NCBI RefSeq assembly: GCF_021028975.2
Contig: NC_059427.1
Span: 125,178,001 to 125,242,000 of the forward strand
Length of the DNA: 64,000 nt
DNA from: Sphaerodactylus townsendi
Taxonomy: Eukaryota
Direction: 5' to 3'
Translations under genes and position numbers: made by a program
The notes under the pieces: generated by a model
What the model saw: only the letters and a program-made list of their open reading frames with translations
The model's database searches: none
What the model was told of the DNA's origin: nothing
In this document: piece after piece, positions 431 to 47,338 of the stretch
Numbering within the stretch: position 1 is the stretch's first letter
Layout: each line of letters starts with the position of its first letter

Positions 431-1376
431 TGTCTTTGCAATCTTTAGAGAGCGGCGAGGGGACCTGTCCATCTTCTGTGGCTGATGGGGGTGGGGGGAA
501 ATACTTCCCAGAATCCGACCTGCAAGAGCTGATCTGGGATTTATTCAGCTCCCCCCCCCCCCCCATCCCTTTTGGAATCGGACCTTTCTATCAGGTTTCA
601 TCCTGCATCTTTCTGGATTAGATCTGATGCCGATTCCATTCTATTTCTCTATTATCAACCGTTGGGCGCCGTCCTCACCAACTCGGAGAGATCCCTTGAC
701 AGGATCTTGCTCCAAACGGTCCCGTTTGTACCATTTCTACCCCCTTCTGCCTACTGGATCCGATTAAATGACCTCTGACTTTTCAAAACCTTGTGCTGGA
801 AGTTCCGTTTCGGTAGCCGTGGGAGTTTGTAGCCATATGCCAACCAGGGGAAGAAACACTATGCAGGCACACAGACAAAACAGGATACCTGAAAGACTAA
901 CAAACGTTATTCGCAAAAGTTTATTGTGGAATAGATCTTACGGATCTTAAGGGCAGCACTGGAGTCCTGTTCAGTTAGGGCATTCGTATCCTATCTGACA
1001 GCCTTCTAAAATGTTCTGCCATCTTTGTTGGGATTTGGATTGGGTACTGTAAGAGTCTTAGGTTTATTTTAGGTTTTAAAAAATAAAAATAATAAAAATA
1101 AAAATCGCGGGACTTGGATTATCTGCGGGATGACCCCCCCCCCCCGAAAAGCACTTTAAGCCATTTTATGGAAACAAAGAAGAACACAAGAGCGGTTTAA
1201 GGCGCATTTATTATGGGATGCAGAAGGGGAGGAAATGAAGAATGTCCCTCATCCTGCCCGCCATCGCTCCAGGAGAAAGATTCGTCCCGTCTTTCTTCTG
1301 CCTGCCTGCCTTTCTTCCCCTCGCCCGGTCCGGGTGTTCCGCTCGGGGTTTCCAGGGCAGCCTGCCTCCCTCGCTC

Positions 1377-2402
1377 TCAGGGGGTGGCGCAGTCCGCGGG
1401 GTCCAGCGAGACGGTCACATCGGCCTTGCACTGGATGATGCTGGGCACGCTGGGCAGCAGCTGGCAGCTCTGCAGCTCCGGAGCCACTTCTTTCACGCAC
1501 ACCGCCTGGCGGAGGGGGAAGAGAGCCAGGGTGAGAGGGCTGGGGGACTGGGACGGGGGAGACGTCGCTAGAGCCGCGCTTTCTCCGTCCGCTCCCTCGG
1601 CCAAGCCAGCTCGCTGACTGTACAGAGAGTAAAGCAATCGGGCTTCCTTCCCCATAAGCACGCTCTAGGATCGCCCCGGCCGTCTCCAGCGGCAGCCCCC
1701 ATCTCCCGAGCTATGTCGAGAGGCTGCCTGGCTGGGACGGCCCGGCAAATCCCTTGCCCGAGGAGAAAGAGCGGGCCAGACGGCTCCCCTGCCCCGAGTT
1801 TGCAAGGGTCAGTCTTGGCCGTTTTCTTTCTGTTGCAACGCGGAGCTGAGCACTTTTCAGGAGAGAAGGCACAGCGGCTGCCCCGCCACCTCGAACGCCG
1901 GGCAGCAGCAGCGGCAGCCACCCCCTGCCGGGACACGGAACTAAAGCAGCCAGCCACACACCCCCTCCACCCCTCTTGAAGACTCCGAGCCGACCACGTG
2001 CGGCTCCAAGCGGCACTCTTCCCAGTTCCCGCCTTCCCGGGTCGGAGCCCTCCGCTCTCCCAGGGGGCGCTGCCCCACCTTGCCCCGCCCGTCGCGGCCG
2101 CCACTCACCAGGCTGCGGAGCCCGCCGGGGCCCTGGCGCGGCTCGGCCATCAGGAAGGCGGCGAGTCCGGCGGGCGCGGCTGCCTCGGCGCTACTGCTGC
2201 TGCTGCTGCTGTCGGGGCCGCCGCCGCCGTCGTCCGAGCGGCGCATGTAGGGCGAGCGGCGGACGCCGGACAGCAGCCCCGAGGCTCTGCCCACCGAGTA
2301 GTAGCTGGGGCCGGCCGCTTGCTTGTACCACGCCTGGGCGGGCGGGCAGAGCAGCGCGGCCAGGGCCAGGCAGGCGAGCGCCAGGGTGGGGGGTCCCCGC
2401 AT
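1377..2402 (-). CDS. NPB: Neuropeptide B precursor, 140 aa; coding exons 2402-2109 and 1505-1377
   Basis: Signal peptide, then [31 protein letters not shown] (NPB23/29 with dibasic sites). Donor CTG|GTGAGT at 2109 and acceptor CAG|GCG at 1505, both phase 0. Exon 2 encodes [14 protein letters not shown]...[14 protein letters not shown]. Position next to ANAPC11 is syntenic. Confidence 0.95.
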
Positions 2403-2458
2403 GGTGTGTTTGACTGCCGCGTCTCAGGCTCGGTCTGGGCACCGGCCGGCGGCTGCGG

Positions 2459-2464
2459 TTTATA
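2459..2464 (-). promoter_or_regulatory. TATA box of NPB, within a CpG island
   Basis: TATAAA on the minus strand about 57 nt upstream of the ATG, with a GC box just upstream. The region from about 1.3 to 2.9 kb is CpG-rich. Confidence 0.75.
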
Positions 2465-4922
2465 TCGGGGAGGCGAGAGCGGGGGCGGCATGGCTCAGCC
2501 TCCTCGCCGAGCACCCCAGCACCCAGGAGCGAGCGAGCGAGCGAGCGGGCGGGGGTGGGGGCAGCAGCAAGAGACGGCGGCACCCCGCTGGAAGCCGAGA
2601 CGCTGCAAGATCCCGAGGCGGGAGAGCGGAGACGCTTCTTAGACGGGAAGCTCACCTGCCGCATAGGTGGCTCCCGCGAGCAGTTTTGGGACGCCAGTTT
2701 CTGAGGCCAATAGGACGCTTTGGAAGGGATGCCCCAAATTGGATGCCCGGTTTTGAACATCCCTTCCAAAGCGAGGAGATGCCAGGCTTGCCGCCGGGAG
2801 CGAGCAAAAGTGGCAGCCACCCCCAAGCGCTCCGTCCACCGTGACTTGGCCAGAGGTTTAGCCGTGGCGTCCCCCTTGCCCCCTGGGTTTCTGTGACCGC
2901 TCTGAAAAGTCTCTGGGGTCAGGACTCAGTTGGGAGGAGGGCGAGGAAGCGCGTGAGGTGTTTTTTCAGATGCCTTCTCATACAACGGGCTTAGTATGGG
3001 TTGGCTTCGTTTTAAGCAATTACCCCATGGGGTGAGTTTCAGGGGTATTCTCAGACACCGTTTGGCTCCCTACATTGAGTTCAGGGCACTCAGAACCGCA
3101 ACCAACTTGCGAGAACGAAGCTCAGTGTCAAAGAGAAAGCTCTTCCTGCTTCCCCAGCCTGATTACCTGGGGAAATTGAAACACTTAGGGCGTGCAAAAG
3201 ATGCGATTTAGCGATTTTTACCTGGCTAGGGCAAAGCAAGATCCCAGTGCGTCTTAATAAGCTACCAGTAACCACAAAATAAACAGATTTTTTTTCAGCA
3301 AGGTGTAGAATTTATTGAGGGCAGGGGAACTGAAAAAGTTTTCTTCAGCATGTGTGTATGAAAATAAGAGAAACTGAAAGAGAATCAAGCCAGAGGCTGA
3401 AGCAGGGAATGGCTAGAGAAGAGGGGAGTGGGTTGAAGTTTGGGAAAGCAGAGGTTTTAAGAGAAAAAGAGTTTGCCTATCCTCAGTCTGGTGAGCTGGT
3501 TAGGGTAGGTAATCTGTTTAGATGACCCAGAGATTCCATGTAGGGACCTTTAGACAGAACTGCCCAAGGATTTGCTGATTCTAGGATGCAAGCTCTGAGC
3601 CAGCAGAAGGGTAAAACTGCACAATTTTGGCTGACAAAACAGTGACAGTTGTACACGCTGGCAAACACACAAAAAAATCAAATAATCGTAGAGTCCAGGA
3701 ATTCACAGTGAGAATCTGCAGCTTTGAGTGAATTGTGGAGGAGGGGGCTTCCTGGAAAGAAAACAGCAGGTACAAAATGCAATCATGGTGAACAAAAGGG
3801 CTGTCAGGGTGGAGGCTTCACCTATGCCTGAGGCAGATTGGGAGGGACCCTTCAGACAAGGTCAGTAAGATCAATCAAGTTGTGACAATCAAGACCCCAT
3901 CTTGGTGATGAAGGCAAAGTCAGCATGCAGATGTCCCATCCATGAATCCCCCCACCCAAGTTGTCCACTTGCTAGCATAGCCTGAGGAGAGCCAATTTAG
4001 CCAAGATGAAGTTGAGGAAGACGGCACAGAGTTAAAAGAATTTCAAAATCTTTTCACCATGCAAGCTTATTTAGATGCATTTTAATGACTATAACTCCAG
4101 GACCAGGTACATGCTGGTTAATCTAAGATAAATTATTTAGACATTTAAACCCTACTTCCCACCCCCAATGGGGCTCACAGCCATTTTATATGTGTGTGTG
4201 TTCTGAAGTTCTTTTATATATATGACATATACATAGTTAAAAAGAATTGAGCAATCTTGAATTTGCTGCTTTTTTGGGGGAATCTTATCAATTTCTCAGC
4301 TTTTCAGGATCATGCAGTTCTGTTGTTTTCCTGTCTCACTATCTCTGTTTCCTGGTTCCCCCCACCCCTTGATGGTCCAGAAAACTGCCCCCTTGCTGAA
4401 GAAGCAGGCAGACAAGGATGGAGCATTTTATCTTGGGTTGCAATTTGTAGAATTAGGTACATGCAGACCCCACAGCAGTAGGTGAAGAACCTGGATCAAA
4501 GTCTAGTGTGTTTTTTACTGCCCTCTGGTGCTGTTTTCCAATTGTGCAGGCTGTTATTTGAGCGAAAGGCTAGCTAGCCCATCTGGAAAAAGACTTCTAC
4601 CCCTGAATATTTTACAGTGGGGTCGGGGATATGGTGCAGGACACTTATATGAAGCTATTGCACAAAAAAACCTTGTATGTATTGAACTCCTGTTAATTTT
4701 AATGGGATATCGATGAATGTGTAATTGGAACTGTGCAATGTGAAATATTCATGACCATGCATAAAGATTAACTTGCCAGATTTCAGATGCCTTGGTAGTG
4801 CTGGCTGTATAGAAAACTTTGGCAGGTGACTCAGTAGGGATCTGCAAATAGCAAGAAACTACAATATGATCAGTTTCACTTAGTTAAACGTTTGTGTGTG
4901 TGTGAGGGATAATTATAGGGTA

Positions 4923-5837
4923 CTAGCGGGCCCGGCCACACGTTGCTGTGGCAATTGTCCTCATCACAGTCCGCAACCCACACAAATGTCCATGCAGGAC
5001 CAGTGATCCCCAGCATAGCCTTTTGGGGTGGTCAAATAGAATCCCTCTTTCCCTTTTCAATGCACATTGTTATAGGGTGCTGTCTTTTTTTTTAGTATAA
5101 GGTAACCCTTTTTATTCTACAACAGAACTATCCAGAGTTCGAATCCCGCTGTCCATGAGGCTGGTTGACACGCACAGTCCTGGCTTGGGTAAGGCAGAAC
5201 TGGGGCAAGCAGGCTATCCCAGTCAGGCAGCAGAGGCAGGGTGGTGAGGCGCTCAGATCGAGGCCAGCTCCCTGGGTTCTTAGAGGGCCATGTGCAAAAG
5301 AAGTGGAGCCAGTAGTGTTGGTTCGCCCCCACCTCGCAGATTGTCTTAGAAGAAAAAGGCAAACTCCAGCTCGTTTTTAGTAAAAGAGAGCTGTGGCGAA
5401 TATGGGTGAGGAAGTGGGTAAGTGGTGGTTGGATGTGCGGGAGGGCAGAGTGAGGTGTGTGAGGATGAGCTGGATGAGTATTGTGTGGTAGCAGTGGGTG
5501 AGGCACAGAGAGTGAAAGTTACCTGCATGTGAGGGGGGAACCCCACCTGACGTGTCACACAGCAAAGTGTGTATGTGTTTCACTTCCACTCGTATTACCT
5601 AACAGTATTGCCTATTTACTGTTTTCACTGCTCATCTCTGCCCATCTGCACGAACATTCTAAGCCCTCATACCAAGCCCTCAGGCCACAGACAGACAGGC
5701 TGCACGAACATTCTAAGGGTGACAGTTGAACACAAACAGCTTCATGGCCTAGTGCGCCAGGAAAAAGACATTTTACCTGCCTCAGGTATGGACTTTCGGT
5801 GATTTGAAGGTCTGATTACCTGCCCGCAACAGGGAGA
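4923..5837 (-). mobile_element. Non-autonomous Helitron copy A, 3' portion (interrupted by the ERV)
   Basis: The minus strand ends in hairpin GCCACAGCAACGTGTGGC, then about 8 nt, then CTAG|T. It is a near-identical inverted match to copy B (10659-12297). Confidence 0.85.
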
Positions 5838-6296
5838 TGTAGGGGTGAGCCCACGAACCCAGCAGAACCGTAGAAGGAGCGCCAGGTATGCCTGTGCCGG
5901 CTACGGCCTTCCGGGCGCACACGCTCCCCCAACCCACGCTCCCCCATGAGTCACGGGTCATGAACTGCCTGACTCGCGGTCACCAGGTGTCCCATACAAA
6001 GGGACAAAAGGGCCCCTGCCCTCAGGTGAAGATTAGACCCAGACACGGATGCTCCCTCCCGCACGTAGCAGCCCAATGAGATCATGCATCACATGATGAT
6101 CTCCCGACCTCCCGTTCTCCCGCCTGCCTGACCCCCTTACACGCCCCCATTGAAACCCTAATAAAAGGTGTGAAGGGTGAGCGCACGGCAGAGTTGCCAG
6201 GATCACGGGATCCCACGTTTCCTGCCACTGGCTCTCTCCACCAGATGAAATCTCCACGTCTCGTCTCTTCATTGGGGCCTCGTGGGCAAGACTACA
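5838..6296 (+). mobile_element. ERV 5' LTR (459 bp)
   Basis: TGTAG...CTACA termini, followed after 3 nt by a PBS. A second copy lies at 9447-9881 on the opposite strand. AATAAAA (TATA- or polyA-like) at about 6160. Confidence 0.92.
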
Positions 6297-6299
6297 AGC

Positions 6300-6317
6300 T
6301 GGTGCCGAAACCCGGGA
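6300..6317 (+). promoter_or_regulatory. Primer binding site complementary to tRNA-Phe
   Basis: TGGTGCCGAAACCCGGGA is the reverse complement of the 3' 18 nt of vertebrate tRNA-Phe(GAA). Confidence 0.88.
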
Positions 6318-6494
6318 ATCCTCGAACCTCCGCCGTGACTTACCGTCGCCTGGAAAAGGGCTTCTCGGTACCGATCGTCCGCTGGATTGGCGCATCCAGG
6401 GACCCACCCCCTCGGTACCGACCATCCGCTGGATCGGCGCATCCAGGGATTCGCGTTCCAGGACACTCTCTCATCTGACGAACCACCGGTAAGC

Positions 6495-7944
6495 ATGGGC
6501 GCTTGTAAAAGCACGGCTTTTGACAAGCACGTTAGCGAGCTGAAAGCGCTAGCGAAACGCGGCAGGGTCTCCGTAAAGAGAGGGGAGCTGCACGAATTGG
6601 TTGAGGAGATTGATAGGCAATGTCCATGGTACCCAGAAAGGGGGACATTCAATCTTAAGGACTGGGAAAACATCGGGCGCACTCTGCACAGAGAGCCTCG
6701 CGTGCCGATGTCGCTGCTACTGACGTGGAGACAGTGTTATGTCGCCATCAGCCTGCAGGTCCCTGGTGTCTTTGCCATGGATCTCCCTCCTTTTGATCTT
6801 TCACCTTCAATTTCAAGCCCGGAAGTTTCTCTATCCACTAAGCAGGAAGCCTGTCCTTCTCCCGTTTCAAACTCTCCCGCTCGTGCTCTCGCGGCCCTGC
6901 CGCCTCCTCCTTCTGCTCCGCCTTCTGCTCCGCTTCCTCCTCCCGTTTCTAAAGCCACCGCACCTCCGTCAATGCCACGTAATGGCACGAGTTTCAAAAC
7001 TCTAGCAGAGCGTATTACCCACGATCTGCAGAGGAAGGAAACCCTGACGGAAGACGATGCTGATCTCCTCGCCGTCTGCCCAGCCCACTACACTGACCAC
7101 GGGGAGGACGGCGTCATTCAGCGAAGTCGCTTGAGTATCGCCCCATAGGCTATAACGTTCTCACTGAGCTCCGCAAGGCAATACGGGACATGGGGATCAC
7201 CAGCCCCTATGTGAGAGGCATGCTGGAAGCAGTCATACGGAATCACGTAATGGTTCCGGAGGACTGGAAAACCACTTTTCACATGCTCTTGAACCCTGCG
7301 CAATATGTTGTTTGGGAAAGCGAATACTGCCAACAATGCATAAGCAGAGGGGCAGCCTCTGGCGGTGCCTATACTGCCGCGCAGCTCTATGGCTGCAAAG
7401 GCTTCGCCCTTCCCGACGCGCAGATCGTCCTGCCGTTTGTAAGAGTGCCCGCTGCCGGACAGCCAACCCAGAGCTTTTCCAACGTTCGGCAGAAGCCTCA
7501 GGAGCCTTACGCTGAATTCCTGAACAGGCTCCAAGAGGCCCTGCAGAGACAAGTTGACAACGATGCAGCCCAACATGAGCTCCTCATGCGCCTCGCCAAA
7601 GAGAACGCCTTTGCTGAGTGCCGCAGGGCGATCACGGGCTTAGGGAAGAACCCCGAACTGGCCGACATGCTTAAGGCTTGCCAGGATATCGGATCTTCCG
7701 CCCATCAGGCCAGCCTCCTAGCCGCAGCACTCTCCACCACCTGGGGGCAGCCCCAAGACGAGTGCTTCAACTGCGGCAAGCGGGGACACTTCCGGAGGGA
7801 CTGTAGGTCACCCGGTGGGGGGCTTACAATCCCGACGGAGGGGGGTTCTCCCCTGGGAGACGAAGGCCCATAGGAAAGCCCCGGACCAAATGCCCCCGAT
7901 GCCAGGAGGGCTTTCACTGGAGAAGCGAGTGCCCGTCGGGAAAC
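6495..7944 (+). pseudogene. gag: Betaretrovirus-like gag (MA, late domain, CA, NC) with frameshifts at about 7130 and about 7820
   Basis: MGACKS myristoylation start. Class II MA motif CPWYPERGTFNLKDWENIG. PSAP twice. Major homology region SFSNVRQKPQEPYAEFLNRL. Zinc knuckles CFNCGKRGHFRRDC and, in another frame from 7891, CPRCQEGFHWRSEC. Confidence 0.92.
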
Positions 7945-8711
7945 TCTTACCCGGGCCTCTCCCCAGCCCAGGACCAAGGAGGAGAATACTAAACCAGCCC
8001 CGAGAACCAAGGCCCGAACCCAAACCACCGCCTCCCAGCGGTATCTCTCTCTCCTGTACCCAACCTCTTTCTCTCAAGTTCCCCCATGAGATCCTCATTG
8101 CCCCGACCCAGTACAGCGATCCCATCCCCCCAGAGGCCGTCGGGTTAATCTTGCCCAAAGCCTCCGCCACTGAGCAGGGACTGTTTGTCGTCCCGGGAGT
8201 CATCGACTCCACACACCAAGGAGCTGTTCACATTCAGGTGTGGACAAACATCCCGCAGGAGTTGCCCAGCAGAACCAGCTGCGCACAGCTGATCCTCCTG
8301 CCCCACACGCTGCCTGCCGCCGATTCAATAAAGGCCACGAGCCCAGATCGCCATCGGGGCACAACCGGCACCACCGTGGCGGCGGTAGAAAAGCCCATTG
8401 GTAGCTCCCGCCCGTACCTGGAGCTCACTATAGAAGGGTGTCCATTCAAGGGACTTGTGGACACCGGCGCCGACGTAACCGTCATCAGAGCAGCCGAGTG
8501 GCCTGATCAGTGGCCAACCAAGGCTTGCCCGCGCATCTGGGGGGTGGGGGGGAAGCAGACCGCGAGACGGAGCACCTGCCCGCTCACAGTCCGCAGTCCA
8601 GGGCTCGAGCGGCAGCTCACAGTCCGCCCCATCATCTTGGACATCCATGTTAACTTGTGGGGAAGGGATCTCATGAGTCAAGTAAAGACGACTCTAGTCT
8701 GGGATGGATAA
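7938..8711 (+). CDS. pro: ERV pro ORF: dUTPase-like domain plus aspartic protease, reached by a -1 frameshift
   Basis: Slippery heptamer GGGAAAC at 7938-7944, with pro in the -1 frame relative to the second zinc knuckle. dUTPase-like GLIL...VVPGVIDS...AQLILLP. Protease motifs LVDTGADVTVI and NLWGRDLM. No stop codons. Confidence 0.88.
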   Translation, partial: GKLLPGPLPSPGPRRRILNQPREPRPEPKPPPPSGISLSCTQPLSLKFPHEILIAPTQYSDPIPPEAVGLILPKASATEQGLFVVPGVIDSTHQGAVHIQVWTNIPQELPSRTSCAQLILLPHTLPAADSIKATSPDRHRGTTGTTVAAVEKPIGSSRPYLELTIEGCPFKGLVDTGADVTVIRAAEWPDQWPTKACPRIWGVGGKQTARRSTCPLTVRSPGLERQLTVRPIILDIHVNLWGRDLMSQVKTTLVWDG

Positions 8712-9112
8712 ATCCACTCCCGCCATGGCCGCTACCCAGAAGAAGAACAGATAGCAGTGGGCCACGTTGAGATCCCTACCCCCCAGCTCTGACTGTGTTT
8801 CCTACCTCCACCCCAGAGCCCCCGCTCTGGAACACCCTCTTTCTCTCTCACTTTGTTCTATTTTTTCAACCAGCAAAGGCGGGAGGGCCAATTGGCTGAC
8901 TGGCCCTCCCTGGATTAAAATCTGGGCCCATCCTGGTACCGCAGCACTGCCAGGACAGGCCCCAAGTTAAGGGGAGGCCGCCGCCATCTGCACGTACTCA
9001 CAACCTGTTTGGGTTGTGGTCGCCCGGTGCATGGCGTCTTATTCGGCGCCTGGCAACTCTACCAATACCATGTCCAAGGCCAGGCGCCTAGCCGAAACCG
9101 CCCCTTAAGGAG

Positions 9113-9217
9113 TGGTTCACCAGATAAGCCTCTGCCACTCAGGTGGAGGAGTTTGGAATCAGACCAGGTTCTCCAGATCAGAATAGACCTACTCTTAACC
9201 ACTACCCCATGTTGGCT
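9113..9217 (-). mobile_element. 5' half of a tRNA-derived squamate SINE (inverted)
   Basis: The reverse complement reads GGTAGTGGTTAAGAG...CTGGAGAACCTGGTCTGATTCC...GGCTTATCTGGTGAACCA, matching the head of the intact SINE at 44026-44321. Confidence 0.8.
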
Positions 9218-9348
9218 TAGCAATTTGACTTCATACACACACAAACACGAATTTGGTTCTCTGCACTGTAGAAAAAGGAGCATAATTTAGTCTTTTCTGT
9301 TCTGTGCCCTCTGAATTGGGCAGCCACTTTTAATCTGAGATGGGATCA

Positions 9349-9446
9349 TCTATATATATATAAATCTAACAGTGTGTTTGTCCCTGATGGTCTCCCCCAG
9401 AAGCTGCTGGACGGTTCACCCCCAAATTTTCACAGGATGTCCCTCC
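9349..9446 (+). mobile_element. Helitron copy A 5' end, displaced and inverted
   Basis: A|TCTATATATATA... matches the first 100 nt or so of copy B. It stops at the ERV insertion point. Confidence 0.85.
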
Positions 9447-9881
9447 TGTAGTCTTGCCCACGAGGCCCCAATGAAGAGACGAGACGCGGAGATTTCATCT
9501 GGTGGAGAGAGCCAGTGGCAGGAAGCGCGGGATCCCGTGATCCTGGCAACTCTGCTGTGCGCTCGCCCTTCACACCTTTTATTAGGGTTTCAAATGGGGG
9601 GCATGTAAGGGGGTCGGGCAGGCGGGAGAGCGGGAGATCATCATGTGATGCATGATCTCATCGGGCTGCTACATGCAGGAGGGAGCATCCGTGTCTGGGT
9701 CTAATCTTCACCTGAGGGCAGGGGCCCTTTTGTCCCTTTGTATGGGACACCTGGTGACCGCGAGTCAGGCAGTTCATGACCCGTGACTCATGGGGGAGTG
9801 GGGGTTGGGGGAGCGTGTGCGCCCGGAAGGCCATAGCCGGCAACAGCATGCCTGGCGCTCCTTCTACGGTTCCTGCTGGGT
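9447..9881 (-). mobile_element. ERV 3' LTR, inverted, missing about the first 19 nt
   Basis: Reverse-complement match to 5857-6296, with scattered substitutions and one short indel. Confidence 0.92.
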
Positions 9882-10032
9882 GACCTTGGCCTAGTCACAG
9901 TTCTTCGGAACTCTCTCAGCCCCATCTACCTCACAAGGTGTGGGGAGAGGAAGGGAAAGGTGCTTGTAAGCCACCTTGAGTCTCCTTACAGGAGAGAAAA
10001 GATGGGGAATAAATCCAAATTCTTCCTCCTCC
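9870..10032 (+). mobile_element. 3' half of the same SINE
   Basis: CTGCTGGGTGACCTTGGCCTAGTCACAG...GTCTCCTTACAGGAGAGAAA...AAATCCAAA tail, matching the 3' half of the other SINE copies. Confidence 0.8.
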
Positions 10033-10658
10033 GATTTTACAGAAAATTTTGCAGAGAGAATTGCATCTGAAATCCATCAGGTCCTTGTATGTTAAGATGT
10101 GTGATTTAGCAGCATAGAAACCAACTTAATTTTATATTACCACTTTGGATGAGACATTTACAGTGCAATCCTAAGAACACTTTCCTGGGTGTAAGGTTCA
10201 TTGAATAGACCTGTGTCGGATTGAAAGTAGACCTGCTTAAGATAGTTTTGTAACATACTCTAGCAACATCTGCAGAGTGGAAATGGGAGAATGGATAATG
10301 CACAGAACCTTTGTTGCTGTGCATATATCAAATTAGTTGAAACCTTTTGGTAAATGAAAACAGTGAGAACCAGTCTCTAGGTTATATTGAACTTCTCTTC
10401 AAAGCTATATACTCACAAAGACAGAAGTTGCTTAGGACCAAAGCAGATGTGATGGATTTAGAAAGATGCAACTGTGAATCACTGAGCTGTTTTTTCTTTG
10501 CTTCATAACAGCCAAAGAGATTGCTCATCTGATAATTGTCTAAATGGTTTTTACACCCCAAACCTCATTATTAGCCCTGAGAGAAAGTGTCTTTTCTTCT
10601 GCAAATCTTTTCTCCTACTTTGAAGTAAAGAAATTGTTGGGATCGTAGATCTCCCCCA

Positions 10659-12297
10659 TCTATATATATATAAATCTAAACGTGTGTTTTTGTCCCTGAT
10701 GGTCTCCCTCAGAAGCTGCTGGACGGATTGTCCCCAAATTTTCACAGGACGTCCCTCCCTGTTGCAGGCAGGTAATCAGACCTTCAAATCACTGAAAGTT
10801 AATACCTGAGCCAGGTAAAACGTCTTTTTCCTGGCGCACTAGGCCATGAAGCTGCTGTGTTTAACTGTCACCCTTAGAATGTTTGTGCAGCCCAGGGGTC
10901 CCCAAACTACGGCCTGGGGGCCAGATGTGGCCCCCTGAAGGCATTTATCTGGCCCGCCAGGCATGGCAGCGATTGCTCCATTCATGTGCAGTGGGGGCTC
11001 GAGGGAGAGGAGGAACTGGCCCCAACGGCTGTTGATTGCAGTTACATGATGGCACCCCCAAATCTCCATGCATTTTCTGACCCAGAGTTGGAAACCTTAC
11101 ATGTGGCAATGCCTGCTCCGCCCTTCCCTCTCGGCTACTCCATGTGTTGCTCTCAGGCTTTCTGTTCCGCCTCACTCCCATTGGCATCAGCCAGGCTGGC
11201 GAATCGCTCACTGGCTGCTAGGGAGGAAAGAACCCAGGAAGATACCTGATCCTGGGTTAGATGGAATGCTTCATTGGGAAAGTTCTGCATTTTTTTTTTT
11301 TTACAGTGGAAGATATTCCACAGCCTCCCCAACAATATTTGGAGCCCACCCTGTACTTGACATACTTTGGTCACTGTTCTAAAAATAGACCATGACAGAA
11401 AGGCTGAAAGGTGAAATCAAACATTTTACCATCATTTGTGCATAGGAATTTGTTCATAGTTTTTTTTAGTCTGGCCCTCCAACAGTCTGAGGGTCAGTGA
11501 ACTGGCCCCGTTTAAAAAGTTTGGGGACCCCTGGTGCAGCCTGTTTGTCTGTGGCCCGAGGGCTTAGAATGTTCGTGCAGATGGGCAGAGATGAGCAGTG
11601 GAAACAGTACATAGGTAATACTGTTAGGTAATACAAGTGGAAGTGAAACACATACACACTTTGCCGTGTGAGATGTCAGGTGGGGTTCCTCCCCCCACAT
11701 GCAGGTAACTTTCACTCTCTGTGCCTCACCCACTGCTACCACACAATACTCATCCAGCTCATCCTCACACACCTCACTCTGCCCTCCCTCACATCCAACC
11801 ACCACTTACCCACTTCCTCACCCATATTCGCCACAGCTCTCTTACTAAAAACGAGCTGGAGTTTGCCTTTTTCTTCTAAGACAATCCGCAGGGTGGGGGC
11901 GAACCAACACTACTGGCTCCGCTTCTTTTGCACATGGCCCTTTAAGAACCCAGGGAGCTGGCCTCGATCTGAGCGCCTCACCACCCTGCCTCTGCTGCCT
12001 GACTGGGATAGCCTGCTTGCCCCAGTTCTGCCTTACCCAAGCCAGGACTGTGCGTGTCAACCAGCCTCATGGACAGCGGGATTCGAACTCTGGACAGTTC
12101 TGTTGTGGAATGGAAAGGGTTACCTTATAAAACAAGACCGCACCATACAACAATGTGCATTGAAAAGGGAAAGAGGAATTCCATTTGACCATCCCAAAAG
12201 GCTATGCAGGGTAGTATTGGACCTGCATGGACATCTGTGTGGGTTGCGGACTGTGATGAGGACAATTGCCACAGCAACGTGTGGCCGGGCCCGCTAG
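10659..12297 (+). mobile_element. Non-autonomous Helitron copy B (complete)
   Basis: 5' A|TC and 3' CTAG|T termini, no TSD, subterminal hairpin at 12268-12285. Confidence 0.88.
10893..11533. mobile_element. hAT non-autonomous element nested in Helitron B
   Basis: TIRs CAGGGGTCCCCAAACT / AGTTTGGGGACCCCTG. Perfect 8-bp TSD GTGCAGCC. Absent from copy A. Confidence 0.9.
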
Positions 12298-13279
12298 TTG
12301 ATATTTATGTCGCTTTCCAGCAGAAATGGGAGAGAGGCTTTATCAGGCAGTGCTGATTAGATTACACGTCACAGATTGCAATTTTCCTGAAATCTCTTGA
12401 AACATTTGAGAATCCCAGAATGCTTGAAAGGTACATAAAAAGAAAACATATTTCATACACATAACATGATGCAGGTGGCATGGGGAGGCGCAAATGCCAG
12501 AAACTCCCCAGCCACCTGAAAGTCCTTCATCGGCCAAAACAGCACCTAACACCACAGGCTGGGATGATACTATCCTAAGATTTGAACCTGGCTTTTTTTT
12601 TAGCTGTAGGAAATAGCAAGGATCCAGTAGCACCTTCAAGACTTAACAACATTTTAAATGTTTTGTTGCTTCCAGCCTGATAAAGAGTCCTGGCGAGGTG
12701 TGCACAATGTTTTGTTTTATGTCATTTGGTCTGTCCTCTAAACATATTACATGATTGTGTTTCTTTTTCTGGATTTTTCATGGCCAACACAACCAATCAC
12801 ACCTTTAAAAAAAACAACCTCAGGTCAGCAACACAACACAACACTCTTGTAGATCAAAATGTTCTGTACCTTTCTGAATACTGCCATTTTTGATGTGGAC
12901 CATGTATCCTTTTCCTGCTTGTCTTACCTGCTTGTCAGAAGGGCATTTTTGATGGTATACGAATACATAGATAACATATATATTTCTTTCACCTTTATGA
13001 TGGAGAAAATTTTCCTTTAATAATGGTCAGAAAATCCTGTTCCTATTGTCAGAATCTAATAAGATCTCCAAGGTCCTGCAAGATCTCCAATGGAGGTGGG
13101 CAGGAGATCTCTCCACCCTGCTCCTCACTCCCCCTGCCATGGCAGCTAGAGCTAGGTTTCTGCAAGGCTTTGACAGCTCCTTCACTTCCTTCCATAGCAG
13201 GGGAACATGTAGGAAGGGAAACCAGAGCCCAGGGCAAAATAGTACACAGGCCTGTCTGCAGCAGCTTCACTTCATGCAT

Positions 13280-13495
13280 GTGATGAAGTAGGCTATAATC
13301 GGTGGAAGGTTAAGCTTCAATAAATGTGTTCGTCTTTAATGTGCTGTAAGACTTTTGTAGCACCTTAAAGACCAATATAATTTCCAGGGTGTAAGCTTTT
13401 GAGAGTCAAAGCCCACTTTGTCATATCTGATGATGATAGCTTTGACTCTTGAAAGCTTACACTCTAGAAATCTTGTGCTACTGGACATCAGTTTT
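13280..13495. mobile_element. Degenerate Penelope-like (Neptune-type) terminal remnants in inverted arrangement
   Basis: Inverted pair ...GTAAGCTTTTGAGAGTCAAAGC... / CTGATGA...GCTTTGACTCTTGAAAGCTTAC, containing a decayed CTGANGA...GAAA core. Confidence 0.5.
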
Positions 13496-15375
13496 ACTCT
13501 TCTACTACAGACAAACACAGCTTCCTAACCAATACAAGACTTTTGTTTTCCTAAAACAGATTAACGTGGCGACCGTACTAAAATCTGCAAGTAGTTAGAA
13601 TAATAACTCCCAAACTGTGAGCCAGGGTACACTTGAGTGCCATGAGAATAAATAAAGGATTCTGTGATCTAAAGATTCCTATTCACTCACCCACTGTGTC
13701 TTTTCTAGCCTTTCCAGCCCTCAGCTGGGGAAGGGTAATTCTGTAGAATCTTTGTTTTGGATGTGAATTCACTGTTGGATGTTGGAGATGTTACTCATTG
13801 TAACTCTGCCTGAGTCACTAGTCTGGACCTGCTTCCCTTCAATTATGCGTATACAGAAAAGTGACTCATGTAAAAATACATGGAGGTAGACTACTCCAAG
13901 GACATGCAAGTCTTATTCCCTCATACCCTAAAAGCAAACTTCAGGTGTAAAAGTAAAGTCTTGCCACTTCTGTGCCTCTGCTATCGCAAGTTTGGGAGGC
14001 AATTAAGTTAAGGATAATGGCATTACTTAACTAATATTGTCTTCATATTTCAGTGATGGGCAGGGCTTTGAAAACACTCTTGTCCTTCTAGATTCACCTG
14101 TATAACCTTCCCCTTTGCAGGGTCATCTTTGTTAGCATTATTATTGTATGTTGGAAAGGTCACAGACAATAATAATTTATTAAGAACGTCTCATTTGGTG
14201 TTTCAAAGGGTTTCCAATAACACATAGCAGGCGGGGGAGGCAGAAAGGACTGGGCACTCAATAGCCAGGATGAAGCATCAAAAACAGCTGGTCTGTGGGC
14301 TGTGAGGCTACATAGCAAAGCTATGGCAAAAACCCTTTTGCTATTGGAGATGGGGATAGAACCCTTACAGATATAATTTAAACAGGACTATTTCTTTACA
14401 GGTCACACCTTTCTATCTCACTGTGGATCTAAAGAGCATATGGGCACTGATAAGAATATTGTGCTCTTGGCAATAATCTTTGCAGAGGCTCTGTGTAGGT
14501 GAAATACACAGGGGGCATTACAAACGATGAATCACATCACTTATTTATTGGAACCTCCCTGTGTCCTCATTTACACTGTGGGCAACTGCTTGGCAATATG
14601 AGAGATCTGGCATTACTGCTTTTGGGAAACCAACACATTGTATTACTAGCCAAGTGTGCAAGAAGATGCAGGCACAAATTTGCAGTTATTCACTCCTCCC
14701 TCCTGCCCCTTTCCCCTAATATTCTCTAATACAACGTTTATACTGAAAGGTCACAGATCTGAACCATATAATGCCCGAACTTTGCCAATAACAACAAAGT
14801 AGGTTTCAAGATTGTTGCCCACAGGCTTAAGGTCTAAACAGAGGAACTGAGATAACAGGAATACAACTCACAAATGAGATACAGAATGGAAGGGAAAGGT
14901 TACCTCAGTTCCCCAGAACATAAATGGCTGAGAATGTGCACTGAATGGGAACATAAATGATTCCCAACTCTTAGTGCATATGAGGCATGGCCTAGGGTAT
15001 TTCAGGCATTGCGAGAGATGTCTGAGTTTTGGAAAACATGAAAAAGGTATTTATCTACTTCTTTAGCTTTTCCCACCAACTATCATACACAGTGTTAAGT
15101 CTGGAAGTCACACAGTGTGTAATATTGCAGAAAGGCATAGAAACCAGAACCACAGAGGGTCAAAGTCCTGATTACACATGGTTGGCAGCATTAGCTATCA
15201 ATGTGCCAGCAGTACTTCCACTTTCCCCATCTTCCTTCAGTTTTCCTTTCAACAACACTGGAAAGGTAGGAGGTATCTTCTATATTGTGTTCCAGGAGCA
15301 GGCAGAAATTCACTCCTTAGCAAGTGAGCCATCCATAGAATCCAAAAGGGGAACAGAGAAAGAAAATTGTCACAA

Positions 15376-15724
15376 TCATTCTTTGAATTTCCATTCCTGC
15401 CGGCACATTGGGCAGTGCTGCTGAAGTTGCTGGGAGTTGAGCCACTTCAAAATACAATGCATATGAAAACAGTGGGAACACTGACCCCATACCAGAGGGC
15501 AGTCATCTCCGGGCACCTTACCTGCAAAATATAAGCTTAATTAGGAGAAAGCTGTCAAAAGATCATATACATATGTAAATATGAATATCAGTGGGCACAC
15601 GGCCTTACTACTCACAGTCTGGGCAGCAGCCATTGAAGGCCATCCGGCAAATTCCACAATTCTCATCATTGGCAACCCAGAGCCAAGAAGCAACTCCATG
15701 CCAGCACTTGATTTTCACTTTCAT
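15376..15724 (-). CDS. ANAPC11: APC/C subunit 11 (RING-H2), 84 aa; coding exons 15724-15616 and 15521-15376
   Basis: Missed by the ORF track. Spliced translation is MKVKIKCWHGVASWLWVANDENCGICRMAFNGCCPD-C-KVPGDDCPLVWGQCSHCFHMHCILKWL...QQHCPMCRQEWKFKE*. Exons total 109+146=255 nt across a GT-AG intron. Upstream acceptor at about 15760. Confidence 0.96.
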
Positions 15725-16726
15725 TATGTCCAGACCACACACTAAGCTTAAGATGGAATCTGACAGAATAAGAAAGAAGCTGGATGGAAAGTAGGTTCAT
15801 TTCTATAGATCCTCCAATCCTTAAACAAAGCCGAATGTTGCATTTCTCTATAAAGCTCACTAAAATATCTTAGAACTTTTTTTGATATTAAATAGTGTAA
15901 AACATGCTAAAATCAGTACTCAACATTTACAAATAACTAGACTGTGTGCGAAGGCTTGGGAAAACAGTCAAGTATGCTAACAGTTCTTCACTGTTTCTTT
16001 AATTCCAGCATCCTCACAGGGAAGGCTGAACAGGGAAGAAACAAAATATTTGTAGAAGCAGCCAATTCAGTTTAAGATGAGCATTTCCACTTTGGTCACT
16101 GGGCAGAATGTCAAAAAAGGGCTAAGATCAGCAATAACCATTCCAACCAGCACAGAAATCAGAATTTCTTTGACACATAAAACACAGAGTATTAAAACTT
16201 TTAGCACCACAGTAATCCAAGAGTTTCATGCAAGATACTAGCAGTCATGCAGCAGTAAAGCCCTAAATTAGTGAAGGGCAAAAAGATACCCTGTACAAGG
16301 GTCTCACAAAAGCACACCTGACTGTCTCTAACAAGTGGCTGCTGCATACATTTAGATCTCCATTATTTATGCAGGAGCATAACTTCACAACAATATAAAT
16401 AAACACAACATGTTAAAAGTCCACATTTCAGAAGGAGGGAAAAATCAGAAGAGAGACGGCAAAAGAGAAGCCAGGGGAAATCTCAGCAAAAGCAACCAAG
16501 TCTTGACAAGGCTAAGACCTGGTTTCCTCATGCCAGAGGACAAGGTGATAAAATGGAACGCTATGGCAGAATGGCATTTCCTATAGTTTAAACAGAAAAT
16601 GTCTATGTTGTTGCTCCTCCACAGACCTGGTCCAGGCAGCTCGAGTTGGACTGCAAATGACAGTCTGAATGTTAATAAAACAAAACACTCCACACAACTA
16701 GAAAACTAGCACATCAGATGAGAAGA

Positions 16727-16815
16727 TGAAGATGCAAGCCACAGATGCAGGTGAAACGTCAGGAGAGAATGCTCCTAGAACACGGACATACAGCCCGGAA
16801 ACCACACAGCACCCC
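16727..16815 (+). mobile_element. Penelope-like terminal fragment
   Basis: Same sequence as 26535-26617 and 47431-47520. Confidence 0.7.
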
Positions 16816-17099
16816 ATTTTCAAGTTGTGTTGATTCGTTAAATGCAGAGAGCTTTTTTTTAACACAGATCACTGCACTAAAAAGTAATCCCTCATGTGCA
16901 GCATGTAGTCATTTTTGTACCCCATTCTCCCGCATACACGAGGCATGCCTAAAATGAGTGCCTTGGACTGTCTGAGAGGCAGAGGAGAACCAGACAAACG
17001 GAACATCGGATAAACTAACGGGGAGATCTTAATGAAACTACGGATATTAAATAGTCTTTTCCTGAGGAGAAAAACAAAAATCACTCCCTATCGCCCGTC

Positions 17100-17450
17100 C
17101 CAGAAAAGAAACACGCTCCTCTCTCATTTCTGCCTCCCATCCCTCCCTCTTCACAGCTCGCTCAATTGCCCCAACCTTTGCGGCGAAACTCAACTGTTTC
17201 TTCCTCTCCTACCTCCTCTCCGTTTCGCCGCCCCCCCGGAAGTCCCGCCCCTCTACTTTCCCAACCTCCCTCACGCGCCCAACTCCCATAAAACCTCGCG
17301 TGTCGACGACGGACGCGCCTTTCGTTCACATAAATCGAAGTTTCCACGTGCGCGCTCTTTGCTCTCATTCCGTCTCCACCCTATCCGGTTCCGGACCCGG
17401 TGTAGCGCGGCCGGAAGCGTAGGCCCCTGGAGCCGGAGGGAGCCGCCATC
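17100..17450. promoter_or_regulatory. Bidirectional CpG-island promoter shared by ANAPC11 and ALYREF
   Basis: Head-to-head genes. ETS/GABP CCGGAAGT at about 17236, a GC box, E-box CACGTG at about 17345, and further CCGGAA sites near 17390-17418. Confidence 0.75.
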
Positions 17451-22568
<5,118 letters not shown>

Positions 22569-27829: not shown

Positions 27830-28530
27830 GTAAAGTGGAAGCCCGGGCTCGGGAGCGGTCCTTTCGGTTCTTGCCGGCCGGAAGGTTGCAGCTCGGGGGC
27901 GGGGTGGGGGGCTCGCTTTTTGTATGTTGGGTTCTCTCTTGCTCTTTTCTGCTTCTTCCGTGGCCGCCGCCCTCTGTCGGTTGTGCTTTAAGACGGCTTC
28001 CCTACCTTTCCCTCTCGCCCGCCCCGCTTCCTTCTCAGTTCTTTACACAGCTCCGTTATTTGATACATCTTTTTTTTCTTTTCGACCGTTTCCTCGTTTG
28101 AAGAGCTGTGAACTTTACTCGCCTTCATTCTCGTGGCAAAGCTGCTACTTCCTTGCTCCGCTCTTATCTCGTTTCCTTTCCTTTGCTTGGCATTCTCGCT
28201 GTTAGAGACGCTGTCGTTTCTCCTTTGGGTCGCTGCCCTCGCATATGCAATCGTGTAGTCGTTATTTTGAGTATATAATGGTTTTTTTGTCATTGGTGGA
28301 GAGTTCCTGTTCCCCTGTCTTGACTTCTTTAGTATCTATGGCTTTGGGAATGTAGTATAACGGTGTGGCTGTTGAAGTCCTTGCACGCTTTTCTGTTCTT
28401 CCTAAACAACTAAATATGTAGGACATACCAAACCACACAAATCACTTCACGCTGTGCCATGGAGAGAAACACAACTGACCACGACATGCCTCTGAAAAAG
28501 ACAGACAAAGATATGGGTGAAACGCTAGGA

Positions 28531-28658
28531 CAGGAGTCTGCAACCTGCGGCTCTCCAGATGTTCATGAACTACAAATCCCATCAGCCCCTGCCAGCGCGG
28601 GGGCTGATGAGATTTGTAGTCCATGAGCATCTGGAGAGCCGCAGGCTGCAGACCCCTG
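28531..28658. mobile_element. Palindromic hAT MITE
   Basis: Near-perfect fold-back, TSD CGCTAGGA. Confidence 0.88.
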
Positions 28659-29479
28659 CGCTAGGAGCTAAAACCACCAGGCTGCCACCGTGCAGCCTGG
28701 AAAGCCCACAATGGCCAGTTTATTCTTGCTGTGAAAACCTTCTACAATGCTGTGTACTGTATCAATTGTAAGTGGCTCACTTACAGTCAGATTCTCAAGT
28801 GTGTCCTCCATACGTTCCTCTTTGGGAAATGTGTCTGGATAGTTCATAGTTTAATCTGCAAATCTTCATTTCTGTGCCATGGGCTGTCTCTGAGCATATT
28901 CAGAGTGTGTTTTTTCCATGACAAAATAAATTACATGCCCAGGATTAGAATGAGGGAGGTTTCTGGGATAGAGGAAATGATGTCAAAGCAGTTCAGACTA
29001 TCTTGCTATTAAAGCTTGGTGTGCTTGATGTTAAAAGAAAGCACAGATCGTTTCTTAAACTGAGTTACACGCTGGTAAGGGGTGTGCAAGGCTAGAAATC
29101 ATGTGTGCTGAATTCAAGAGAAACTAATAATGTGTAAGTTTTAAATGAACCCCCCCCCCCAAGGATAGCTATATATTGTATTGTTCTTAAAAATAGTATG
29201 TCAAGGTAGCCCATGTGTAGTATAGCCATAAGTAGCAATCCTGTTAAGCTTCCTAGTAAGTTTTAAAAGTGTGTAAAAATGACCCTCACTTGGGGAAGTT
29301 ACTAGAAGAGCTTGTAACTTTGTTCCATACTTTTATACAAATCTTTTATTGAGCATATTTGTAGGCTTTTAGCTTGTCTTGACATGAGCTAGGCAATTAC
29401 TTTCAAGTTGGCTGTCATAGTATTCTTTTGGGCATATACTGGCTACACTTCTAGAGAAAGGTTAGAGGATACGCTAGAG

Positions 29480-29615
29480 CCGTGGTGGCGAACCTTTGGC
29501 ACTCCAGATGTTATGGACTACAATTCCCATCAGCCCCTGCCAGCATGGCCAATTGTAGGGGTTGATGGGAATTGTAGTCCATAACATCTGGAGTGCCAAA
29601 GGTTCGCCACCACTG
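29480..29615. mobile_element. Palindromic hAT MITE
   Basis: Fold-back, TSD CGCTAGAG/CGCTGGAG. Confidence 0.88.
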
Positions 29616-37693: not shown

Positions 37694-39786
37694 CTGTGTG
37701 CAGAGTACTCTCTGTATTTCTGTCACTGTTCTAGTTGCTTCATTTTGCAGAACAGTAAACAGGTGTTTGGCTCTCTAGACTAGCAATTTTGTTCCAGCAT
37801 GTAAACATTTTGTACATACTCATTGCAGTAAACTAACACCAATGGTATTCTGGAATCATTTTGTGGAGTGTGTCACTTTCCAGAGTCCTTTCCAATACTT
37901 GATGCATGGGTGCATTGCAAAGTGGGAAGTGGAATTGATGAAGCCATGCCCAGTCATTCATCTGAGTACTACTTTGCTGCGTGGGTGTGGGGGAGGGAGG
38001 CAGCACTGAGCCTAGTGATGCAGCTTGAGGCCACAAGATGGTGGTGTAATAACTGTGTTTCCTAATGGCCAAAGTAGAGTGCTGCCTTCAGGATATAAGG
38101 AACAGGCAGGGATCTGGTAGGCAGCCTGATTCGGAGGAGAAAACAGTGGAGCTGTGCCAGCGGCTGCTGCTTTTCAGTGTCATGTCCAAGGCATGTGGCC
38201 ACACCCTTGGAAAATGAGCCAACTTCTTGCTGAGGGGAGGAGACTTTTGCTGCTTTCTAAAGGAGTGGGGCTGGGCTGCATCTTGTTATCCTTCTAGTCA
38301 CAAGAGCAGGGCACTCCCTTCGGTAGGAGAAGAATATTGTTTGCTGAAGGTTCCCCTTTCAGGACCCAGAAGAATTGGTGCCACCTTACACACCAGAAAA
38401 CACTTCTGGATGAATGACAAATGGTTCCTTATTCTGTGTTTAACTGGACACTACATGGGAACTCTCTCTCTCCCCCTCCCCCCAAGTGTTCTGGTAATTT
38501 TGAAGCTGGTGCCAGCTCAGTGAGTTCTGGGAAGAGTTTTTGCTAGGGGCAAAGAAGGGCTAGTGGTAAACTGCTGTGGGTTAATGGGCTGATGCTGCAT
38601 ACAGTCTGCCTTGTAAGTAATGGGAAGTGTGCCAGTTTACCAGGGCCTTCCCATTCCTGGAAAGCTCCTGGCTTCTTATCGCCAGGCAGTTCCTGTTTTG
38701 CTTTAGGATGAGTGGGGCTATGTTACCCTCCCATGTCTTTATAACTAGCTGGATTCAGAAGCAACTGGCATTTACTACTGTAAAGGAAACTGCTTCTCCT
38801 CTGGGCTCACCCTGTCTGCCAGAAAAGGGTGTATGTGTATCCTAAACATGCTTCACTTCATGTGAGACTGCAGTTGAAAATACTGGTATTAATGCAGAAG
38901 CCTTGTAAACTACTTGCTTCTTCGTAACACAACTCAGCTGCAGATGGGGTGAGTAGGAGTTCATGAAAAGCTTGAATGAATGGTTTTGTAGTAGTAGGTA
39001 ACCTCTGCCTAAATAAGTTTGATTTGCCTTCGTGTGCAAATATATATATATATATAAAAAACAACCCTAAATTGACCATGGCAGCCATCTCTTTAAGAAA
39101 CTTTTATTTTAAAGAGAAGAGTGTTAGAAGGGAGTGTCTCTTTATGCTATGTCTCTCTGCCTATGTCTTGTGGCTGCTTCCAGCCTCCTCAAGTTGCAAG
39201 AGCAATTAAGCATTTTTGATGAGGAGAAGCAAGTGAGTTAGTGTGCCCTACCAAACTTTCAGGACCACTGTCACCTCTACTTCCTTTTTCCTAGGGAAGC
39301 CAAAGTTTCATCCTGTGTGGTTTGTGCCCTTCTCCTTGTCAAAGGATCTATATATTAGCTATGTGTAGTTCTTTTTGTCAGCAGGAGTTAAGAGTTCAAA
39401 GCTACATAATGTAATTTTGCTCTTAAAGGACACGCGAGGAGAGTTGGGGTTATAGTCATTCAGTTCTTCTTTACTCATTTAAACAGATGTAACACAGCCA
39501 AGATAAGGAATAAAAACGAGAGTTATCACAAAATCACTGCTGCCTGCTTTCTAATTGAATAGCCGTCTGTGGCAAAGCTCCTTTTGGTCTGTCAGTTCAT
39601 TTTCTCTGCCTCCTACTTTTCTCTCATTAGTTACCTGTCAAATACTTTAAATAAATAAAATTCCAGTCTTCCTAATGTCCTATTTTCTGCAGCTGTTACT
39701 ACTACAAATTTCTTTGAGCTTTTCCCAAATATTTCATGTTTGCTTCAGTTGCCCTGTAAGCTACCTTGTAATATATTGGAATAGAC

Positions 39787-39925
39787 CCGTGGTGGCGAAC
39801 CTATGACACTCCAAATATTCATGGACTACAATTCCCATCAGCCTCTGCCAGCATGGCCAATTGACAGAGGCTGATGGGAATTGTAGTCCATGAACATCTG
39901 GAGTGCCATAGGTTTGCCACCACGG
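39787..39925. mobile_element. Palindromic hAT MITE
   Basis: Fold-back, TSD GAATAGAC. Confidence 0.88.
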
Positions 39926-40065
39926 GAATAGACCCTATAACCGTTTGCTTCCTGATTTAGCAAGTAGGGGAACAACAACGCGTGTAGATTTTTTTCCTTA
40001 ACTTTATGACTTTGTGGGCTTCTGCTCAGTTTGAAAACTGCTACTTCAAAGTGTAAGGTTTACAT

Positions 40066-40213
40066 CAGGGGTAGGGAACCTGCGGCTCTCCAGATGTTCA
40101 GGAACTACAATTCCCATCAGCCTCTGTCAGCATGGCCAATTGGCCATGCTTGTAGGGGCTGATGGGAATTGTAGTTCCTGAACATCTGGAGAGCCGCAGG
40201 TTCCCTACCCCTG
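40066..40213. mobile_element. Palindromic hAT MITE
   Basis: Near-perfect fold-back, TSD GTTTACAT. Confidence 0.9.
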
Positions 40214-46643: not shown

Positions 46644-46822
46644 ATCTTGAAACTTATCATGGGTTTGGCCTTGTGAAGTTATTAGTAGTCAAAGTAGAAT
46701 TGGCACCCGAATGTTCTGTGAAACAGTAGATGTGCTGGGGGTTTAAAAATCTCACTCTACAAATGCCATCTTCTAGTTCCACCTGTCCTTGATCCTTCAA
46801 CCACTTCTGCATTTATCTAGCA

Positions 46823-46970
46823 CAGTAGTCTGTAACCTGCAGCTCTCCAGATGTTCATGGACTACAATTCCCATCAGCCCCCGCCAGCACAGTCAATTGG
46901 CCATGCTGGCAGGGGCTGATGGGATTTGAAGTCCATGAACATCTGGAGAGCCGCAGGTTGCAGACCCCTG
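46823..46970. mobile_element. Palindromic hAT MITE
   Basis: Fold-back, TSD ATCTAGCA. Confidence 0.88.
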
Positions 46971-47338
46971 ATCTAGCAAGTGCTCTTTTCGGATGGTCAT
47001 TGCTGTCTGACACATGCCTGTTGTCACTTCTGCATCTGGATCAATGTCTTCCTAACCCATTTCACAGATGAATATCTGCTAGATAACCACAACTCCCTTG
47101 TGGCTTTATCAGATAATGTCTTCCGCCAGGGATGGTTTCTGCACATGTTAACAGCTACCGTGTGCTTGACTGAAGTGATTACTTCATGAAGCAGTTACAG
47201 TATTTGAAGCTTTTAGAATCATTGGGATATGGCATAGAAACTCTGCGTACTACATTTATTTTGCTGTTCCTCCAGAGAGCTGAGTGCTGACAAATGATTC
47301 TCCCCTTTATCTTGCATTCACAAACAACCTCTGGGGTT

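Follow-up and report, generated by a model that had tools for sequence, protein, structure and literature searches.

Proviruses with one long terminal repeat (LTR) in inverted orientation are rare but have been described. An inverted-LTR HERV-K element is reportedly the subject of Hughes and Coffin 2002, going by the title of that reference. HERV-K124, a betaretrovirus-like provirus, has a truncated 3' LTR that points the opposite way to its 5' LTR; its authors, who cite Hughes and Coffin 2002, call LTR inversion rare (PMC3625200). Among vertebrate endogenous retroviruses (ERVs), PrERV-1 of the guppy also has one inverted LTR (PMC5210030). Here we describe a locus of this kind in the gecko Sphaerodactylus townsendi, at positions 5838-9881 of a 64,000-nt stretch of contig NC_059427.1 (positions 125,178,001 to 125,242,000 of the forward strand; hereafter the window). 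The locus is probably real and is cleanly mapped, and its nested elements reveal both junctions and the sequence in which the events took place. We consider it likely to be an ordinary class II provirus in a Helitron-like element that later underwent a microhomology inversion, with the convergent LTRs as a by-product and the locus most likely silent or a minor antisense source. Whereas HERV-K124 has three LTRs and a mechanism that its authors call unresolved, host flank lies inside the flipped piece here and both junctions are mappable (PMC3625200). PrERV-1 is foamy-like with an inverted 5' LTR and an unclear mechanism, whereas the gecko provirus is beta-like with an inverted 3' LTR (PMC5210030).

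Other described systems resemble the locus in their geometry or their proposed effect. Inverted terminal promoters face each other across a gag-bearing interior in DIRS-1 of Dictyostelium, as the LTRs do here; however, inverted repeats are the normal form of this tyrosine-recombinase family and its output of small interfering RNAs (siRNAs) has been shown, whereas the gecko locus is a one-off rearrangement (PMC4482531). Mu killer of maize, which silences its own family, is likewise a rearranged element copy able to do so via double-stranded RNA, but it contains a stretch of coding sequence duplicated in inverse orientation, into which transcription from a flanking gene reads through, whereas here the LTRs alone are inverted repeats (PMC3440606). 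Single defective or gene-proximal proviruses, ALVE6 of chicken and the MAP4K4 KoRV-A copy of koala, are possible sources of antisense PIWI-interacting RNAs (piRNAs), and no inverted LTR is described for either in the excerpts consulted (PMC5383398, PMC12264075). The gecko copy is comparable in lying antisense to, and downstream of, ANAPC11. The koala copy is inside a 3' untranslated region (UTR) (PMC12264075), whereas about 4.7 kb separate that of the gecko from the first poly(A) hexamer of ANAPC11. The excerpts of PMC11599104 do not mention inverted LTRs.

The left, 5' LTR (5838-6296, plus strand) is complete, with a length of 459 bp and TG...CA ends. The right, 3' LTR (9447-9881) is on the minus strand, and its alignment to the left LTR begins at 5857, the first 19 nt being missing. 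Over 443 columns the two are 93% identical (bit score 661; 417 matches, 14 mismatches and 13 gap columns), which is not a chance match. Pfam matches to Gag_p10, Gag_p24, zf-CCHC, dUTPase and RVP, all on the plus strand, lie between them, confirming the initial annotation in its account of two nearly complete LTRs facing each other across gag-pro. That annotation did not include the longer inverted pair that encloses the locus (4922-5705 versus 11534-12298; 785 columns, 93%), nor the host DNA carried in the flipped piece, namely half of a Helitron-like element, a unique flank and half of a short interspersed nuclear element (SINE). The sole A-rich box of each LTR (AATAAA at 6160 and, intact, at 9583) is compatible with either a TATA box or a poly(A) signal. 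A CCAAT-like box near 6073, found in the left LTR only and situated at a site of CpG decay, was excluded from the promoter evidence.

The provirus sits in a non-autonomous Helitron-like element. The 3' part of this host element (4923-5832, minus strand; 93% to the sister copy) ends in a hairpin and CTAG followed by T, and its 5' part with the TC start (9349-9441, flipped to the plus strand; 90% to 10657-10758) ends where the other half begins. The sister copy without a provirus (10657-12298, plus strand), which is also the partner in the longer outer inverted pair, provides an empty-site reference: its 3' part matches 5836-4922 (minus strand), its 5' part matches 9347-9446 (plus strand), and the parts meet at the same site. 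There the sister has GGAGG once, where the outer ends of the provirus have GGAGA (5833-5837, plus strand) and GGAGG (9442-9446, minus strand), a target-site duplication common to both ends. We also compared contigs of four public runs (X1, X3, X4 and X5, out of 11 listed) with window positions 1200-9446, a stretch that ends before the second junction described below. All four behave as genomic DNA, with the NPB intron unspliced and intergenic DNA in continuous contigs. In each of them contigs link 5832 to 9446 on opposite strands with four shared letters (8, 5, 4 and 4 contigs); these contigs probably come from other Helitron copies, and they still confirm the empty-site join. As both outer LTR ends adjoin complementary halves of one Helitron at a shared target site, the two LTRs belong to a single integration as its 5' and 3' copies, with TG at 5838 and CA at 6296 and 9447. 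The direct LTR orientation of a provirus is absent, which is explained by a later inversion that included host DNA. A Helitron that carried an LTR in from elsewhere is ruled out by the target site, which is the same for both LTRs and lies within one Helitron.

Both copies of the host element have a 5' TC, a 3' hairpin with CTAG and an insertion site between A and T; we name them Helitron-like. They belong to one family (4922-5836 and 10755-12298), lie 5-6 kb apart in opposite orientation with 93% identity, and are older than the inversion. The sister copy itself holds a 641-bp insert (10893-11533), which we take to be a miniature inverted-repeat transposable element (MITE) of hAT type: its terminal inverted repeats measure 16 nt, and the target duplication of 8 bp is exact.

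The inversion is bounded by two junctions. At the first (9113-9117), the ERV interior meets the reversed head of a SINE with a 5-nt overlap: an ERV paralog contig fits the window to 9117, the SINE starts at 9113, and SINE contigs become loose before 9113. The inverted 5' half of the SINE (9113-9209, minus strand; 74-78% to three intact copies in the window) is followed by unique host DNA (9210-9348) and then by the Helitron head and the LTR. The second junction (9870-9881) places the LTR start over the SINE middle with an overlap of about 12 nt; the SINE match begins at 9870, whereas that to the LTR extends as far as 9881, with one gap relative to the left LTR and 7 nt exact relative to the other SINE copies of the window. 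Beyond it, the 3' half of the SINE continues in its original orientation (9870-10031, plus strand; 75-81% to three intact copies). Head and tail together tile the three intact copies with a gap of about 25-30 nt. SINE-family sequence beside 9113 has the same 30 letters in all four runs, and the last eight equal, by eye, the letters at 9870-9877; about 22 nt of the SINE were therefore lost. Short overlaps at the two junctions (5 nt and about 12 nt), combined with the loss of 19 nt from the LTR and about 22 nt from the SINE, are consistent with a microhomology inversion, and the presence of host flank inside the flipped piece makes this inversion later than the integration. A single contig covers the unique core (9132-9374), and its depth is that of single-copy DNA (75.7 in X1 with flanks of 80-122, and 41 in X3 with flanks of 46-69), and the public contigs fit the pre-inversion order together with a single-copy core. 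In organism B, the Helitron head is on the same flank as in the window.

Based on these observations, the SINE and the Helitron-like element were in place first, and the flanks show that a class II (beta-like) gag-pro provirus then integrated into the Helitron-like element between ANAPC11 and NPB. A single inversion of about 770 bp (9113-9881), presumably caused by template switching or microhomology end-joining, would have flipped the 3' LTR, the Helitron head, the unique flank and half of the SINE, at the cost of the LTR and SINE nucleotides given above and of some length of viral interior. Convergent LTRs would thus have arisen as a by-product, both presumably methylated in the germ line, at a locus that is most likely silent and may at most be a minor source of antisense RNA.

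The LTR pair also bears on age and on past methylation. Of 431 columns compared, 14 differ between the LTRs, 13 of the differences being transitions (Kimura two-parameter distance 0.034). Eleven of the 14 differences are at CpG, compared with a simulated mean of 3.6-3.7; whichever copy was taken as the start, a value of 11 was attained in one simulation out of 20000. Such an excess suggests that both LTRs were methylated in the germ line. Divergence outside CpG is 0.8% (3/372), which corresponds to a provirus age of roughly 1-4 million years if 1-3 substitutions per billion sites are assumed to accumulate each year.

Two other accounts of the arrangement itself have to be considered. The flipped piece could be an assembly artefact, in which a short unique contig between the SINE and the LTR was mis-oriented or a chimeric molecule was included, the real provirus having direct LTRs. 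A unique core between two high-copy repeats is of the type prone to mis-orientation, none of the listed contigs crosses a junction, and the window letter at 2077, in the NPB intron, differs from all four runs, a private allele or a consensus error, so that the consensus is either not flawless or from another individual. Overlaps of 5 nt and about 12 nt with deletions at both ends are, however, typical of repair events, and a k-mer graph would need longer ones to make a join; moreover, the window is without any N and a chimera would require two strand switches. We regard an artefact as unlikely. It is much less likely still that the arrangement arose stepwise, by collapse to a solo LTR, copying of an LTR-gag-pro fragment into the neighbouring SINE, and LTR-LTR recombination that flipped the interval. 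Such a history would yield the same two junctions, its flipped state being a solo LTR plus an insert in a SINE, but it requires three events in place of one, and the SINE insert has neither integrase-type ends nor a target duplication. With respect to future recombination, the initial annotation held that inverted LTRs cannot collapse to a solo LTR. This is correct insofar as an LTR-LTR crossover inverts and does not delete; however, the Helitron heads are now direct repeats flanking the flipped LTR (102 columns, 90%), and could delete it.

Concerning function, the initial annotation had proposed that convergent transcription and fold-back turn the locus into a trigger of small RNAs. The geometry of this proposal is correct and the 3' parts of the LTRs could pair, whereas the indirect readout from CpG leans toward silence. 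Under this proposal, which we think improbable, germline transcription would start from both LTRs, and sense and antisense RNAs overlapping over about 3 kb, together with fold-back stems, would seed siRNAs or piRNAs against a multi-copy family in a manner like that of DIRS-1 or Mu killer. With both LTRs active, each transcript could fold back over at least about 100 bp (-231 kcal/mol for the duplex of arms assumed at 6190-6296 and 9447-9553), and the ERV family is multi-copy (one contig has a depth of 1100 versus about 45 for single copy). The opposed repeats of DIRS-1 give siRNAs (PMC4482531), and in chicken (PMC5383398) and koala (PMC12264075) piRNA production is triggered by individual proviruses; yet the chicken study states that transcription alone is insufficient for a piRNA locus (PMC5383398). 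Both LTRs show CpG decay, the stretch between the flipped LTR and gag-pro contains an ATTAAA on the minus strand (9334), and the fold-back is not special in a window that has 19 inverted matches of at least 100 nt, four of them at 90% or more, the longest being the Helitron pair. Dense methylation, which the initial annotation had named as evidence against its proposal, is approached by the CpG decay (11 of 14), as a past state only. A role of the flipped LTR as an alternative promoter of NPB or a terminator of ANAPC11 is very improbable, more so than any other account considered here. As annotated, the LTR is co-oriented with NPB, about 7 kb upstream of it and downstream of ANAPC11, with its A-rich box at 9583 situated 7181 bp from the NPB ATG; it is co-oriented with ANAPC11 as well. 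Minus-strand donor-like sites are present at 6343, 5522 and 2655, according to a crude scan that by eye passes one of two known donors printed as controls. The regulatory proposal is nevertheless weak, both genes having poly(A) or promoter signals of their own. Five minus-strand AATAAA/ATTAAA hexamers (9334, 5116, 4703, 4086 and 3316) lie between the LTR A-rich box and NPB, which has its own TATA-like box at 2464 and a CpG island (observed/expected 0.77). The signal peptide and mature NPB are encoded in exon 1, so that splicing to exon 2 gives no peptide, and no pyrimidine-rich acceptor was seen just before the ATG. ANAPC11 has AATAAA hexamers at 14549 and 14181, which precede the LTR by 4.3-4.7 kb. 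Transcripts reading through from ANAPC11 would be antisense to gag-pro irrespective of the flip, and the flip places an AATAAA in their path. Among the papers listed by our literature search, none dealt with an LTR promoter for NPB.

Several observations weigh against an ordinary provirus that was later inverted and is now silent. No contig among those listed from the four runs bridges the first junction (9113-9117), and the target-site duplication has one mismatch. CpG decay reflects past methylation and not present silence; both LTR copies still hold many CpGs (observed/expected 0.61-0.65) and the A-rich box is intact. LTR methylation could itself be a result of small-RNA targeting. Some window-specific ERV letters are unsupported in X3 or X4, from which nothing is concluded, as contigs drop rare variants.

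The interior identifies the provirus as class II or betaretrovirus-like, with a separate pro frame, a dUTPase before the protease, beta-type matrix and capsid, and two zinc knuckles. Directly 3' of the left LTR is a primer-binding site (6300-6317, plus strand), which we take to be of the tRNA-Phe type. The leader contains a near-tandem duplicate of about 50 nt, recognized by eye (6355-6445), and contigs of other copies differ there, with a joint at 6334-6413. The gag region (6495-7932, plus strand), supported by reading frames and Pfam domain matches and with Gag proteins including HERV-K Gag as top PDB matches, is broken: matrix and capsid are in different frames, with a switch near 7100-7148, a stop is at 7871-7873, and the second zinc knuckle (7891) is in a third frame. 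A pro frame (7722-8711, plus strand) encodes dUTPase and aspartyl protease (Pfam dUTPase 2.8e-11, RVP 2.1e-19). The following stretch of about 400 nt (8712-9117, plus strand) has no recognizable pol or env, with no Pfam family in the three forward frames at E<=10. Paralog contigs contain this stretch (8680-8792, 8945-9072 and 8949-9117), one of them across the pro stop, and at least some family copies are therefore without pol there. A suspected remnant of the integrase C terminus at 8860-9111, an idea taken by eye and from a snake relative (P0003), was not supported (no Pfam match; BLASTP E values of 1.5 and 14). As gag, dUTPase and protease are the only genes found, with neither a recombinase nor a reverse transcriptase, the inverted LTR carries host flank and a target duplication is present, the locus is not a DIRS element and its inverted end is secondary.

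Related proteins occur in public data. The nearest named one is from Sphaerodactylus townsendi itself (P0005; 91% over 58 residues); it is named KIF17, starts with gag and dUTPase pieces of the ERV family described here, and reflects either an error of gene modelling or the exonisation of an ERV elsewhere in the genome. P0003, a protein model from the snake Ahaetulla prasina, combines gag, dUTPase, protease and integrase C-terminal pieces and has no reverse transcriptase match, hinting that pol-less gag-pro elements of the same group may also be present in snakes.

The neighbouring genes, which we take to be NPB, ANAPC11 and ALYREF from sequence motifs, are in the order ALYREF - ANAPC11 - NPB within 1378-20800, presumably the same order as in human. 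NPB (ATG at 2402) and ANAPC11 (coding sequence 15724-15376) are on the minus strand and ALYREF is on the plus strand, with a divergent ALYREF/ANAPC11 promoter region near 17200-17460. Rfam and ARAGORN gave no matches. Elsewhere in the window, several near-perfect inverted repeats of one family of palindromic elements of 140-160 nt (28525-28664, 29474-29613, 39782-40218 and 46817-46977) are probably MITEs.

In conclusion, the two junctions reported here are locus-unique tags. Among titles and abstract openings listed from an incomplete library, none described a vertebrate ERV shown to silence its own family via an inverted LTR, and no gecko piRNA study was found by title. There is a slim chance that, through the inversion of 770 bp, a single member of a young, multi-copy ERV family of lizards became a convergent unit like DIRS, with antisense gag-pro RNA seeding piRNA or siRNA silencing of the whole family. 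If so, a 'killer' locus would have originated in a vertebrate by rearrangement, and the junctions of its origin could be mapped. If it made antisense small RNAs, a vertebrate would have gained silencing of a young ERV family by rearranging one copy, and not by insertion into a piRNA cluster or a 3' UTR.

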